Origin: an uncultured Candidatus Saccharibacteria bacterium
GTDB taxonomy: Bacteria > Patescibacteriota > Saccharimonadia > Saccharimonadales > 2-12-FULL-41-12
Assembly: GCA_964609815.1 (NCBI GenBank)
Contig: CAZSRV010000001.1
Coordinates: forward strand, 12,868 to 59,642
DNA length: 46,775 nucleotides
Direction of reading: 5' to 3'
Positions 10,442 to 16,607 of the stretch are shown in pieces. Positions within the stretch are counted from its first letter, which is position 1. Each line of letters starts with the position of its first letter. The position numbers were made by a program, and so were the translations under genes. Under the pieces are notes generated by a model. The model was not told where the DNA came from and made no database searches. It worked only from the letters and a program-made list of their open reading frames with translations.

Positions 10442-10471
10442 TTGCTTAATTGTTGCCATAAACGGTATAAT
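10442..10471 (+). promoter_or_regulatory. Putative promoter of the ATPase operon
   Basis: TTGCTT, an 18-nt spacer and TATAAT, about 30 nt upstream of the 273-aa gene. No terminator is seen between that gene and the b-like gene. Confidence 0.4.
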
Positions 10472-10502
10472 AATCATAAGATTATAAGAAGTTAACTTTA
10501 TT

Positions 10503-11324
10503 ATGTATAAAATAAAAAGGACATTATCGGGATTAATAGGGGTAGCTGTCTTGGTTGCTGCTTTTGGGGTGTTTGGAACGCTGGTTAATGCTCAGAGTGT
10601 TTTGCAAGGTTATTCATCAGAAGAAAAACTCCAAAAAGGTATGTTGGTAGCTCTAAAGGAGGGGGATGAAGGTAAAATAGTCGCCCTAACCAACGAAACT
10701 GCCAGTAGGTTTAAAGGCGTGATAGTTGATAAAAATGACTCGCCAGTAACTATTAGTAGCGAAGACCATCGGTTTTTTGTAGCTACTAGTGGTCCGTATG
10801 AGGTTTTAGTTAGTAATGAACGTGGTGCTATAACTAAGGGTGATTATATTTCGGTTTCTTCTAATCCTGGGATTGGTGCCAAAACGTCAGAAAACCAAGA
10901 ATTTGTGATCGGAATAGCTACTTCTGACTTTGGTGGTGGCGGTGAAGCTGTCAGCACTACCGAAGCAGGTGGTCGCAAGGCTAGTGTTGGACGTATAACA
11001 ATTGATGTAGCTTTTAGCAAAAACCCAAATATGAAAGCGCCAGAAAAGGACAAGATACCAGATGTAATTCAGAAGTTCAGTAACACCATTGCCGAAAAAC
11101 CAGTCAGTAACACTCGTATATATATCGCCTCGGCGGTGCTTTTGATTACAGCTTTTATAACAGGAACCATGCTTTATGGAGGTGTTAGAAACGCCATAAT
11201 CTCTATTGGTCGTAATCCACTGTCCAAGGGTAGGATTATCAAAGGCTTAATACAGGTTATAATTATGGCGCTTATTATTTTCATTGTGGGCGTATTTGGG
11301 GTATATTTAATAATAAAGCTTTAG
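10503..11324 (+). CDS. Secreted-domain membrane protein with a C-terminal c-subunit-like helical hairpin
   Basis: Signal peptide ending LVNA/QS, then a roughly 170-aa beta-rich domain. The hairpin has two TM helices joined by the loop RNAIISIGRNPLSKGRIIK. Neither TM helix contains Asp or Glu. Confidence 0.8.
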   Translation: MYKIKRTLSGLIGVAVLVAAFGVFGTLVNAQSVLQGYSSEEKLQKGMLVALKEGDEGKIVALTNETASRFKGVIVDKNDSPVTISSEDHRFFVATSGPYEVLVSNERGAITKGDYISVSSNPGIGAKTSENQEFVIGIATSDFGGGGEAVSTTEAGGRKASVGRITIDVAFSKNPNMKAPEKDKIPDVIQKFSNTIAEKPVSNTRIYIASAVLLITAFITGTMLYGGVRNAIISIGRNPLSKGRIIKGLIQVIIMALIIFIVGVFGVYLIIKL

Positions 11325-11352
11325 CAATATGAGGGGGCGGGAGTAACTAAAA

Positions 11353-11973
11353 ATGGATTCATGGCTGCAGACTGGTTTGGTGGTAATCTCACTTCTGGGT
11401 GCTACAGTGGCTTTTATTTGGCTGGCTACCCGTATGGGGGCCAAAAATCAGTCAGATAATCAAAATAATGATTTTGTGCGCATGGCTGAAAATGACATTG
11501 AGCACATTTTTAACGATGAGTTCCGCGAGGAGTTGCGTAATCGCGGCCGACTGCATTTTGAGAAAATCATTGGCGAAAACGCTATGTTCCTTCAGCAAGA
11601 TTTGCGTTTAACTACATCGCAAGTCAATGACTATATGAAATCCGAGATTACCAAGACCCTGCAAGAAGCTTTTTCTAAATATCAAGAATCAATCAATGAT
11701 GCTGAGCAGCTGGCTCTAGAAAGTATCCAAAAGACTCAAGAAACAGTTGAGAAACAGCGCGAGGTAATGAGCCGGCAACTAGAGGACGAAATTGCCAAAG
11801 AAAAGGCTCGTCTAACAGAGAGGTTTTCTAATCGTATGGCCGATATAGTTAACCATTATGTATTGGCGGCTATTGGCAACCAAATTAGCTTGGAAGATCA
11901 GCTGGAATTTATTATGGGTGAGCTAGAGCGTAATAAGCAGGCAATTGTTGAGGACATAAATCAGGGCGCCTAA
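11353..11973 (+). CDS. atpF: ATP synthase subunit b-like stator protein
   Basis: A single N-terminal TM helix followed by a long charged coiled-coil. It lies immediately upstream of the delta-like gene. Confidence 0.55.
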   Translation: MDSWLQTGLVVISLLGATVAFIWLATRMGAKNQSDNQNNDFVRMAENDIEHIFNDEFREELRNRGRLHFEKIIGENAMFLQQDLRLTTSQVNDYMKSEITKTLQEAFSKYQESINDAEQLALESIQKTQETVEKQREVMSRQLEDEIAKEKARLTERFSNRMADIVNHYVLAAIGNQISLEDQLEFIMGELERNKQAIVEDINQGA

Positions 11974-14075: not shown

Positions 14076-14932
14076 GTCGGGTGCAAGAGCTAGAGAAAGA
14101 AATGCGCGGCGTAGGAGCTATGGTGCAGATGAGTAGTGTCTTTGAAGGTATTGCCAGTATGAAGATTGCCAAGATCAAAAACCAGGTTTTGCAGGCCAAG
14201 GAATTTTTTGATGATTTGTGGCAAATCTACACTCAGCTAAGAGTAGACAGTTTATTTAGGTTTGGGCGCGAAAACGATGGCGATAACGTTATAGACAAAG
14301 AACTTTATATTATCATCACCGCCGAAGGTGGCTTTAGCGGCGACATTGACCAAAAGTTAATCCGCTACATGCTAGAAAGTTACGACGAGTCCAAAAACGA
14401 TATTATTGTTATTGGCCACCACGGTGCTGTTCAGCTGGCCCAAAAGAACATTAGCTACAAAAAATACTTCAAGCTACCAGAGCGTGACCAAAACATTAAT
14501 GTAACACCGATTATGAAGTATGTTTCTGATTATAAATCAGCTAGTGTTTTTTATCAGCAGTATATATCACTAATGGTCCAGGATGTGCGCAAAATCGGCC
14601 TCAGCAAAGCGGTGGCCGACCAAGGTGAACAGGCCGAAAAAGGCGAAGAAGTGATTAGTGAATCTAACTATATCTTTGAGCCAAGTGTTTATGGTGTGGT
14701 CGGGCATCTAGAGAGATCTATGATGAATATTATGATGGAACAGCTCATTTTAGATTCCAAGTTAGCACAGTATGCTAGCCGGTTTCGGGCTATGTCAGCT
14801 TCTCATCAGATGGCTGACGAGCAGTTTGATGACGTCAAACTGCGCTTTAATCGTGCCAAACGTGGTATCAAGGATGAGCGTCTAAAAGAGATAATTAACG
14901 GCTTGCGTAGAGCAGCGGGAGCGAATTCATAA
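14072..14932 (+). CDS. atpG: ATP synthase subunit gamma
   Basis: The ATG at 14072 overlaps the alpha stop (ATGA). It has N- and C-terminal helices (RFRAMSASH...) and the expected operon position. Confidence 0.8.
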
Positions 14933-16239
14933 TGGCTGGTGTCGTAGATTCTATAAAAGATTTGATTGTGCTGGTTAGCTTTGATGACGATTATCCAGAA
15001 ATTGGCGAGCTATTGCAGGTCCAGAACGAGGCCAAGACTGAGCTATTGGTAGAACGCCTAGAAAAGGGTGGTCGGGCGATGTGTTTGAACGTTCGGTCTG
15101 ACAAATCTATTATGCGTAGTGACAAAGTTGAACGAACTCATCATGGCATAGAGATTGTAGTCGGCGAGGAAATTATCGGTCGTATTTTTGATCCGCTAGG
15201 TGGTCCGTTGGACGGCCTGCCAGACGTAGATCGTGACAAACTAGCCAAAAAAGACATCCTAAAGTTGCCTCCTAGGAGTACCAAGTTTGAAGTCCAAAAG
15301 CCAGAGATTCTAGAAACAGGCATTAAAGTTATTGACTTCATGACACCTCTGGTAAAGGGTCGCAAAATTGGTATTATCGGTGGTGCCGGTGTAGGCAAGA
15401 CGGTGCTGACTATGGAGCTGATCAACAACATTGCCAAAACAGGCAAAGGACTATCATTCTTTACCGGAATTGGTGAGCGTATTCGTGAAGGACACGAGCT
15501 TTATGACACTTTGCGCGAGGAAGACCTACTAAAGAATACTTGCATGTTCTTTGGGCAGATGAACGAAAACCCCGTTCAGCGTGCTTTGGTCGGTATCTCA
15601 TCGGCAGCTTTGGCTGAGTACTTTCGTGATGAAAAAAAGATGGATATTCTGTTCTTTGCCGACAACATGTTCCGTTATATTCAGGCCCGTAACGAGCTAG
15701 CAACTATTTTGGGCCAGATCCCGAACGAAGGTGGTTATGAACCAACAATCTTTTCTGATGTAAAAGTCTTGCAAGACCGCTTGAGTTCCAATGAGAACGG
15801 CTCAATTACATCTTTGCAGACTATTTATGTGCCGGCTGACGATATTTCTGACCCAGCTGTACAGATGATCCAACACGAGCTGGATGCTACTATTGTGCTA
15901 TCGCGTGCTGTGGCCGAGCAGGGTATTCGTCCGGCTGTAGATTTAAACAAAACTACTTCTTCGCTTTTGACCCCAGAAATTGTGGGCGATAGGCATTATG
16001 CACTTAGCGTTCAGGTACAGGCTTTGTTGCAAAAATACGAGTCGCTAAAAAGTATTATCGCTATTATTGGAGAAAACGAGCTGAGCCCGGCCGACCGCGC
16101 TGACTATGCCAAGGCCAAAAAACTAATCCAGAACTTTACCCAGAACATGACAGTTATGGAAAAACATAATGGTATCCCGGGCGAGTTCTTTACCCGTGAC
16201 CAAACCCTGGCGTCTATAGAAGAGATTATTGCGAGCTAA
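14932..16239 (+). CDS. atpD: ATP synthase subunit beta (435 aa)
   Basis: P-loop [37 protein letters not shown] and GIRPAVD. Confidence 0.93.
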
Positions 16240-16241
16240 CC

Positions 16242-16607
16242 ATGGCTGATGATGACAAAAAACCACCTGCCGAAGAACCAAAAGCTCCGCAGGCTGAAGA
16301 GCCAGCCAAAAAACTAACCAAAGAAGAAAAAAAGGCTCAGGCAGAGGAGTTCAAAAAAACTTCTACTGTTCGCCTAAAGGTTTATTCACCGTTTAGGGTA
16401 TATTATGATGATGATGCAGAGAGTGTCTCGGCCGAAAACGCCACCGGGCCGTTTGATATTTTGGCTCAGCACCGCAATTTTATCACACTACTTGTGCCTT
16501 GTGAGATTGATGTTAAATCATCCAAAACCGGCAATAAAAAGATCAAAATCAACCGTGGTGTGATGCATGTTAGACAAAACAAAGTCACCGTCTTTTTAGA
16601 CGTCTAG
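16242..16607 (+). CDS. atpC: ATP synthase subunit epsilon-like (beta-sandwich only, Lys/Glu/Pro/Ala-rich N-extension)
   Basis: It is the last gene of the operon. Residues from about 40 to 121 (VRLKVYSPF...GPFDILAQHRNFITLL...GVMHVRQNKVTVFLD) follow the epsilon N-domain pattern. There is no C-terminal helical hairpin. Confidence 0.65.
   Translation: MADDDKKPPAEEPKAPQAEEPAKKLTKEEKKAQAEEFKKTSTVRLKVYSPFRVYYDDDAESVSAENATGPFDILAQHRNFITLLVPCEIDVKSSKTGNKKIKINRGVMHVRQNKVTVFLDV

Follow-up and report, generated by a model that had tools for sequence, protein, structure and literature searches.

Among the ATPases derived from the F1 part of ATP synthase, the Type 3 'F1-like X0' ATPase of mycoplasmas (MSC_0618-0624 / MMCAP2_0575-0581) is needed for antibody cleavage by the MIB-MIP system (PMC12994834). 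In the same paper, published in 2026, the F1-like X0 type is called mycoplasma-specific and a conformational change relayed across the membrane is proposed by the authors. The Type 2 G1-ATPase of Mycoplasma mobile (MMOB1660/1670) is the gliding motor of this species. N-ATPases (TIGR03324/TIGR03305) are encoded in an additional, divergent operon of the F type that accompanies the canonical one. Within the Saccharibacteria, the cultured oral species Southlakia epibionticum carries one canonical operon (SEML1_0349-0357) in the order AtpZ/I-a-c-b-delta-alpha(511 aa)-gamma-beta-epsilon and no second set. No paper linking F1-like or atypical F-type ATPases to Patescibacteria was found in a literature search covering about 8 million papers, and the papers on Saccharibacteria and the candidate phyla radiation (CPR) that were checked for statements on ATPases mentioned a generic F-type ATPase only, or none.

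Here, an operon of seven genes is described that is located in a stretch of 46,775 nt (in the following, the window) from an uncultured bacterium of the Saccharimonadales (Saccharibacteria, CPR/Patescibacteria). Its first gene encodes a membrane protein of 273 aa, termed X, and the other six encode a b-like protein, a delta/OSCP homologue, alpha, gamma, beta and a truncated epsilon. The operon represents a self-contained F-type-derived ATPase family that is distinct from the canonical ATP synthase and has a wide distribution, both among Saccharibacteria and in other lineages of the Patescibacteria. With good confidence, its products constitute a distinct F1-like ATPase of which X is an integral subunit. 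On balance, and by a small preference, the complex is regarded as an undescribed ATPase that does not translocate ions, in which the subunits a and c are replaced by X, in parallel to the mycoplasma 'F1-like X0' type. An F1-derived ATPase with a non-Fo membrane part is a known type; new are the wide occurrence in another phylum and the c-like, externally displayed partner.

The seven-gene operon and its F1 and stator subunits

The seven genes on the plus strand (10503-16607) are tightly packed, with intergenic gaps of 28, 16 and 2 nt and overlaps of 11 nt (delta/alpha), 1 nt (gamma/beta) and, if gamma starts at 14072 as chosen by the gene callers, 4 nt (alpha/gamma). The gene arrangement, the spacings and the hairpin sequence of X given in an earlier note on this DNA could all be reproduced exactly from the open reading frames (ORFs). 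The promoter-like element that the same note had placed ahead of the operon exists. Because only 9 of 12 positions agree with the consensus and sites of this kind show no enrichment here (18 vs 12.3 ± 3.7 in shuffled sequences), a promoter ahead of X is graded as plausible and no more. The features are as follows; the loci mentioned are those of the synteny analysis below.

10453-10482, plus strand: promoter-like element TTGCCA-18-TAAGAT in the 103-nt gap 5′ of X (consensus scan).
10503-11324, plus strand: X, 273 aa, membrane protein specific to this ATPase family (ORF; first gene of the operon in 80/80 loci).
11353-11973, plus strand: b-like stalk protein, one N-terminal transmembrane (TM) helix followed by a long helical region (sub-threshold Pfam match, architecture, position).
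11990-12661, plus strand: delta/OSCP homologue with a Pro/Ala/Thr/Gln-rich C-terminal tail (family profile against PDB).
12651-14075, plus strand: F1-like alpha, 474 aa, with shortened N-terminus and P-loop GDGKSGKS (Pfam ATP-synt_ab).
14051-14932 (293 aa, first ATG) or 14072-14932 (286 aa, gene callers), plus strand: F1-like gamma (Pfam ATP-synt).
14932-16239, plus strand: F1-like beta, 435 aa, with Walker A GGAGVGKT and catalytic GERIREG (Pfam; motifs read in the translation).
16242-16607, plus strand: truncated epsilon, 121 aa, with a Lys/Glu/Pro-rich N-terminal extension and the beta-sandwich, without the C-terminal helical domain (Pfam).

The window proteins were searched with Pfam, which resulted in clear matches for alpha (ATP-synt_ab, PF00006, E 5e-65), beta (PF00006, E 5e-64, with the Walker A and GERxxEG motifs kept), gamma (ATP-synt, E 1e-28) and the N-terminal domain of epsilon (ATP-synt_DE_N, spanning residues 44-120 of 121), in weak matches for b and delta and in none for X. 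By these matches, the alpha, gamma, beta and short epsilon genes named in the earlier note were verified. All of these subunits score under the equivalog cut-offs of NCBIfam, namely alpha with 383 vs 484 (TIGR00962), beta with 426 vs 463 (TIGR01039), gamma with 85 vs 194 (TIGR01146) and epsilon with 47 vs 67 (TIGR01216).

In a library of 1.84 billion representative proteins, the members of its own family are 58-63% identical to the window alpha, followed by short alphas of 466-483 aa (35-41%) and ordinary alphas (about 32-40%), so that no protein outside the family exceeds 41% identity. Between bacterial phyla, the identity of alphas normally exceeds 50%, and due to this gap the window alpha is considered a deep paralogue and not a fast-evolving orthologue. 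A neighbor-joining tree (no bootstrap) places the window alpha and the short alphas in one clade, apart from the canonical alphas. The clade shares the P-loop GDxK[ST]GK[ST], where canonical alphas have GDRxTGKT, and an N-terminus that is about 12 residues shorter. Among the alphas of standard length in a 50%-identity library, the best-scoring one (P0143) is a canonical Mycoplasmataceae alpha with 37% identity; shared composition or fast evolution, rather than kinship, may account for this match.

As to the stator, the delta protein of the window itself gives weak matches below the cut-off (TIGR01145, E 0.006; Pfam OSCP, E 0.19). It is homologous to the delta protein of a related operon (L093, see below; E 2e-16), the orthologue in another one (L091) lies above the Pfam OSCP cut-off (34.2 vs 22.3), and the profile of the family matches solved delta/OSCP chains with E 2.5e-9. 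As judged from these sequence comparisons, the delta-like protein is a genuine delta/OSCP homologue. For the b-like protein, the Pfam match to ATP-synt_B stays below the cut-off (E 0.0025, score 18.3 vs 28). Since its profile detects no solved b subunit in the PDB and coiled-coil noise only, the assignment rests on the architecture, the gene position and the sub-threshold Pfam match. Of the two stator genes proposed earlier, delta is hence confirmed by its profile, and b is carried by architecture and position. The b-like protein is unusually conserved for a b subunit (median identity 63%). The epsilon proteins of the related operons are even shorter than that of the window (84-91 aa) and consist of the beta-sandwich only.

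Compared with canonical F1Fo (atpIBEFHAGDC; Southlakia SEML1_0349-0357), the operon has homologous alpha, beta, gamma, epsilon N-domain and delta/OSCP, a single-span b-like stalk, the order b-delta-alpha-gamma-beta-epsilon and the catalytic motifs of beta. It differs in the lack of a and of a free c, with X in their place, in F1 subunits that are all sub-equivalog, in an alpha with an N-terminus about 12 residues shorter and the P-loop GDxKSGKS instead of GDRQTGKT, and in an epsilon without the C-terminal helices.

The Type 3 system of the mycoplasmas, which is the nearest precedent, likewise comprises a cluster of seven genes with divergent alpha, beta, gamma and epsilon and without a or c, and is found in genome-reduced, host-dependent bacteria. 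Its protein MMCAP2_0577 has, like X, a signal peptide, one or more ectodomains and two C-terminal TM helices, a likeness by description that has no counterpart in an NCBIfam sequence match. The Type 3 ATPase coexists with a canonical ATP synthase, which is listed as a further likeness and which for the X operon is deduced from published gene counts (see below). In contrast, the X operon occurs in a different phylum, keeps a b-like and a delta gene and lacks the 12-TM protein (MMCAP2_0581) and the small cytoplasmic subunit, and X has a small ectodomain of about 145 aa with a likeness to phage decoration proteins. With the models for MSC_0619, MSC_0618 and MSC_0622, the window alpha, beta and gamma stay under the cut-offs (254 vs 520, 370 vs 570 and 14 vs 95, respectively). 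There was no protease or immunoglobulin-binding family among the Pfam matches of the window ORFs, where MIB and MIP models were not searched by name.

With the Type 2 G1-ATPase, a second precedent, the operon would share the recruitment of an F1-derived motor for mechanical work at the cell surface, which for the X operon is a proposal. The window proteins score 316 vs 600 and 340 vs 850 with the Type 2 models, the context of a dimeric F1 or a PGK chain is missing and the partner proteins are others. The N-ATPases resemble it in that they, too, come from a divergent F-type operon that is additional to the canonical one, as the X operon probably is. Unlike the X operon, they keep a, a carboxylate-bearing c and AtpQ/AtpR and pump ions, and the respective scores of the window proteins are 321 vs 750 and 377 vs 752.

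For the distribution, one genome per GTDB species was scanned for X, which was found in 306 species representatives; locus counts refer to 80 loci from 80 of these. All but one of the 80 loci (Limnocylindria) are labeled as Saccharibacteria, Patescibacteria or 'bacterium', and the X carriers include, among others, the GTDB families SZUA-47, JACDBH01 and JALRHH01. The order X-b-delta-alpha-gamma-beta-epsilon is kept in 80/80 loci as far as the contigs reach, with all seven genes present in 60. Such an arrangement far exceeds what chance would produce. The conserved operon consists of these seven genes only and contains no polytopic protein. The median identity to the window protein is 45% for X, 39% for delta, 72% for alpha, 66% for gamma, 76% for beta and 52% for epsilon. 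Between genomes whose X proteins share only about 44% identity, the b-like proteins hardly differ in their cytoplasmic part, e.g., in EHIFNDEFREELRNRGRLHFEKIIGENAMFLQQDLRLTTSQ, which is shared by the window and the locus L045 of a 'Ca. Saccharimonas sp.' metagenome-assembled genome (MAG). This is unusual for a b subunit and suggests a tight, conserved contact.

Sister operons in other Patescibacteria were located via the contigs encoding short alphas. X homologues with the R-N-P motif described below stand beside F1-like operons in four deeply diverged alpha clusters (L088, L091, L092/L095 and L093), and the window X can be aligned with the sister X proteins over nearly the whole length (blastp, E 5e-23 to 4e-9). 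The gene orders, with protein lengths in aa, are:

L091: X279-b204-delta150-alpha-gamma-beta-eps87; X apex IGRNPLSK.
L093: X273-b194-delta147-alpha-gamma-beta-eps84; X apex IGRNPLSK.
L095: X272-b196-delta142-alpha-gamma-beta-eps86; X apex IGRNPLSK.
L092: X253-alpha-gamma-beta-eps84, without b or delta; X apex IGRNPLSK.
L088-L090: b-delta-alpha-gamma-beta-eps91, flanked by two X paralogues on the opposite strand; X apices IRNPTSK and IGRNPLGY.

One further contig (L096) starts inside the b gene. The synteny of the 273-aa gene with the F1 genes, which the earlier note had named as a check, is thus observed in all 80 loci and extends to the sister lineages. This supports the view that X is obligatory and syntenic for the F1 genes, both in Saccharibacteria and in sister lineages of the Patescibacteria. 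The two X paralogues around the L088 operon (5591-6427 and 11931-12683, both on the minus strand) are diverged, and the same arrangement is present in L089 and L090; a mixed assembly could be formed in this lineage.

Protein X and subunit c

X has no match in Pfam, NCBIfam or PHROGs, and two sister X proteins and two neighboring proteins that were also compared with PHROGs remained without a match. In a collection of 5.8 billion proteins, 363 relatives were found with the window X as query and 1440 with a diverged member (the X of L045); all are about 250-300 aa long and have neither names nor Pfam domains. The AlphaFold2 model of X has a mean predicted local distance difference test (pLDDT) score of 88. 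It consists of an N-terminal hydrophobic helix (residues 3-30), strands (33-173), a short helix (187-197) and two long helices (203-237 and 239-272), in which the architecture proposed in the earlier note, a signal peptide, an extracytoplasmic beta-rich domain and a C-terminal hairpin, can be recognized. The parts of X are as follows:

10503-10592, plus strand: predicted signal peptide, residues 1-30, V-N-A|Q-S (model helix 3-30; alignment).
10593-11027, plus strand: predicted external beta-barrel, residues 31-175 (AlphaFold2 model; Foldseek).
11109-11318, plus strand: TM helical hairpin with the shape of subunit c, residues 203-272 (AlphaFold2 model).
11208-11222, plus strand: apex motif G-R-N-P-L, residues 236-240 (invariant in 40 aligned sequences).

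In the alignment, A30 and Q31 are nearly invariant and the residue at -3 is small or aliphatic; the signal peptide is probably cleaved after A30. If it is cleaved, the beta domain and the C-terminus lie outside and the Arg/Lys-rich loop is cytoplasmic, which is the topology of subunit c.

A Foldseek search of the beta domain against the PDB resulted in phage capsid decoration proteins (E 5e-3), and against BFVD in preneck-appendage barrels of phages, DUF2190, capsid-fiber proteins and N-terminal domains of Mtd (E down to 1.3e-9). The predicted fold of the ectodomain thereby resembles barrels that decorate phages or anchor their appendages (DUF2190, the N-terminal barrel of phi29-type preneck appendages, lambda gpD/SHP-like; Foldseek E down to 1e-9, about 20% identity). 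At the sequence level, this phage-like fold is not seen by PHROGs or Pfam. Unlike these phage proteins, X is a cellular membrane protein with no PHROG or significant Pfam match, and its operon lies outside a prophage context.

The hairpin alone was modeled with a pLDDT of 95. When this model was compared with 350,542 PDB chains, ranks 1-46 were all occupied by F-type c subunits, with TM-scores of 0.8-0.88 and a root-mean-square deviation of 1.3-1.6 Å over 67-69 residues. R237-N238-P239 is located exactly at the helix break of the model, as is R-Q/N-P in c. Including the sister lineages, R-N-P occurs in 85/85 distinct hairpins and G236 (GRNP) in 84/85, and the membrane parts of the helices contain no Asp or Glu in any of the 85. 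The loop is the most conserved segment of X (median identity 68%). With hhalign, R-N-P was set on the ARQP loop of c in register with a score of 19.8; column shuffles scored 9.4 ± 1.9 and 1/300 reached 19.8. The likeness of the loop to R(Q/N)P and the missing carboxylate, both pointed out in the earlier note, were thus found throughout the family, as was the lack of the GxGxGxG packing motif in helix 1. In addition, X is encoded directly before b, which is the position of atpE in the canonical Saccharibacteria operon a-c-b-delta-alpha-gamma-beta-epsilon (Southlakia table).

Taken together, X shares with subunit c (PF00137) a hairpin of two helices with the ends outside and the loop in the cytoplasm, the R-(N/Q)-P apex, a predicted superposition of 1.3-1.6 Å and a gene directly 5′ of b. 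It differs from c in that the hairpin has no ion-binding Asp/Glu, no GxGxGxG and no match to a hidden Markov model (HMM) of c, and in that it is fused behind a signal peptide and an external domain of 145 residues. X resembles c in its shape and topology, in the apex motif and in the position of its gene, and common descent with c is plausible.

Several observations weigh against a c-like X in a working F1-like complex. None of 28 X hairpins matched Pfam ATP-synt_C at E<=10 (HMMER), and no c subunit was found at E<=10 when the profile of the hairpin was searched against all PDB sequences, so that the profile comparison with ATP-synt_C suggested in the earlier note came out negative. The probability given by hhalign is 2-10%, a weak local signal, and the c-subunit sequences in this comparison were written by hand. 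The missing GxGxGxG motif in the alignments of helix 1 belongs here as well. TM hairpins in the PDB are most often c subunits, which limits the specificity of the fold match, and in the published table of Southlakia a Saccharibacteria VirB2 pilin is likewise reported to match a structural domain of subunit c. Furthermore, there is no evident hold for the b-like helix without an a subunit, the L092 operon has no b and delta between X and alpha, and in the related locus L094 no X was found within 14.6 kb.

Mode of action and alternative readings

The reading preferred in the earlier note, F1 and stator on a c-like protein that does not translocate ions, is the best-supported one by synteny, the c-shaped model, the R-N-P motif, the missing carboxylate and the separate F1 family; the part of it that would relate X to c by profile was not borne out, as the HMMER searches were negative and the hhalign probability did not exceed 10%. 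In such a complex, X would assemble via its hairpin into a base resembling a c-ring, and its R-N-P loops would serve gamma and epsilon as docking sites, in the way the R-Q/N-P loops of c do. ATP hydrolysis would then make X, together with its external crown, turn or tilt relative to the b/delta stator, and mechanical work would reach the cell surface (fibers, wall, host contact), as has been proposed for the F1-like ATPases of mycoplasmas. Because a carboxylate and an a subunit are both missing, no ions should be carried. The C-terminal helices of epsilon are inhibitory; as they are absent here, ATP hydrolysis should be favored.

The steps of this scheme differ in probability. The chances that X forms a c-like ring are even. 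Mechanical work of the F1-like ATPase at the cell surface is a tentative suggestion. More doubtful still is the complete picture of an unrecognized rotary surface motor of Patescibacteria, in which a ring derived from the c-ring, without ion binding and crowned by phage-decoration-like barrels, would be spun with ATP by the F1 head on a b/delta stator and would exert torque on fibers, wall or host in episymbiosis.

The main rival explanation regards X as a non-rotating transducer or anchor that is present, like MMCAP2_0577, as a monomer or small oligomer; the F1-like head would push or pull on it and thereby shift the external domain or partner proteins. This would agree with the overall architecture, which is the same as in MMCAP2_0577, with the conformational change across the membrane put forward for mycoplasmas, with the lack of GxGxGxG and of a significant profile similarity to c, and with the two X paralogues around the operon of the L088 lineage. 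However, a full gamma and the beta-sandwich of epsilon are kept, which are the parts that sit on the c-ring in F-type enzymes, and the invariant motif is found exactly at the apex of the hairpin as in c. A 12-TM partner like MMCAP2_0581 is also missing from the operon, and the NCBIfam models of the mycoplasma families miss X. A transducer of this kind is therefore considered unlikely.

The other explanations depend on the whereabouts of a and c. Among the window ORFs of at least 90 aa, no match to Pfam ATP-synt_A or ATP-synt_C was found, and a small HMM built from c-subunit sequences written by hand detected nothing among 9511 stop-to-stop segments of at least 50 aa from the window and 84 loci. 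The flanks of 80 loci (±10 kb) contain no a, no c and no second alpha or beta. The statement of the earlier note that the window has no a or c gene therefore stands.

Published gene counts are available from a BlastKOALA annotation (PMC12592800, Table S5). According to these, the complete genomes of Ca. Saccharimonas aalborgensis, GWC2_44_17 and Ca. Mycosynbacter amalyticus have one copy each of a, b and c, two each of alpha, beta and gamma, and one epsilon. TM7x and RAAC3 have one each of a, b, c, alpha, beta, gamma and epsilon. In several bins of the order CAILAD01, a, b and c are absent, alpha and gamma occur once, beta once (0 in one bin) and epsilon is 0 or 1. The duplication passes without comment in that paper (PMC12592800). 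The doubled counts correspond to a canonical plus an X-type operon, because b, delta and epsilon of the X type are too divergent to be named. This suggests that the X operon is an additional system beside the canonical ATP synthase, where the link of the doubled genes to the X operon is our inference. For at least a part of these genomes, the published counts make it probable that canonical a and c are encoded at another place, accompanied by an alpha, beta and gamma of their own. The earlier note had set a location of a and c elsewhere in the genome against its preferred reading. Such a location is indeed likely for some genomes; it fits a second system and is no refutation of it.

An ordinary ATP synthase with split genes, in which the operon provides F1 and stator, atpB and atpE lie elsewhere and X is a co-transcribed accessory, assembly or regulatory factor, is improbable. 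Split atp operons exist in other bacteria, the search for a and c covered the window and the flanks so that both may be encoded elsewhere in the genome, and some X-carrying families of the Saccharimonadales also have a proton-pumping oxidase. But alpha, beta and gamma are duplicated in complete genomes that have a, b and c, and therefore the canonical Fo has its own F1 there. The CAILAD01 bins have alpha, beta and gamma and no a, b or c. The operon also brings its own b-like and delta genes, its four F1 subunits are below the equivalog cut-offs, its alpha forms a separate clade and its epsilon is truncated across the family. Moreover, X accompanies the F1 genes even between lineages in which the alphas share no more than 35-41% identity.

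Very improbable is an X hairpin that moves an ion by unconventional chemistry, e.g., via the conserved Gln251, which would make the complex an ion pump or an ion-driven synthase. The polar Q251 in helix 2 is indeed conserved in 79/85 hairpins. It is, however, located 14 residues past R237, near the cytoplasmic end of the helix; the coupling carboxylate of c lies about 20 residues past the loop arginine. L091 and the L088 paralogues do not have Q251, nor was an a-like half-channel protein found in the window or within ±10 kb of the 80 loci. Finally, the absence of a and c and the divergent b and delta might point to an ATP synthase operon in decay. This reading was rejected, since intact reading frames, a gene order conserved in 306 species, median identities of 72-76% for alpha and beta, intact catalytic motifs and invariant X motifs effectively refute it.

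Neighboring genes and implications

Downstream of the operon and convergent to it, a single-span membrane protein of 340 aa with a repeat-rich external region is encoded (16830-17852, minus strand). Its gene lies directly 3′ of epsilon in 54/80 loci and also in L085-L087, and the only Pfam match is sub-threshold (Bactofilin, 21.8 vs 27.9). It is possibly associated with the ATPase. With this gene begins a run of secreted or membrane-anchored proteins without significant Pfam matches (16830-26612), in which the 340-aa protein (minus strand) is followed by proteins of 232, 260, 469, 421, 345, 327 and 298 aa. The 469-, 421- and 345-aa proteins are paralogues, two proteins of the run have sub-threshold matches to WxLIP_PGBD and PKD_4, and several of the genes hold their position beside the operon in 37-54 of 80 loci.

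On the upstream side, a 68-aa ORF and a 510-aa gene resembling asparagine synthase (weak Pfam matches to Asn_synthase and GATase_7) are located between a cysteine desulfurase gene and X (8655-10399). As they have no counterpart in the 80 related loci, both genes are regarded as a lineage-specific insertion; a small ORF beside an enzyme of this kind recalls peptide-modification clusters. The window further contains a tmRNA gene (2128-2522, minus strand; Rfam RF00023, 75.9 bits), while ARAGORN gave no tRNA or tmRNA in the window.

In two of the sister loci, L092 (1527-17308) and L095 (110-13807), the F1-like operon is embedded in one conserved larger cluster, yet the alphas are only 44% identical. 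The cluster encodes a giant PKD-domain protein, two fiber proteins with Peptidase_S74 domains and a 200-aa protein whose C-terminal region is hydrophobic. In L092, the giant PKD protein ends in an LPRTG sortase-type signal and a membrane anchor.

Until now, descriptions of F-type ATPases recruited for tasks beyond ion translocation came from mollicutes only. The family presented here is separate and much larger: it includes at least 306 species of Saccharibacteria, its X proteins make up more than 1400 protein clusters, and other Patescibacteria carry sister operons. The X operon may explain puzzling gene counts, with alpha, beta and gamma only or in duplicate. Since genome surveys count the genes of X operons as "F-type ATPase", inferences of ATP synthesis from a proton gradient are inflated for these organisms. 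Should X be a rotor that derives from c and bears an external domain, it would offer a testable model for the rewiring of rotary ATPases into mechanical devices. If the complex acts as a surface motor, it would be an independent second invention of the 'F1-like X0' principle and the first case in which the rotor itself is displayed extracellularly. The cell-surface biology of episymbiotic ultrasmall bacteria is poorly understood, and the F1-like ATPase with X is a candidate for a machine that takes part in it.

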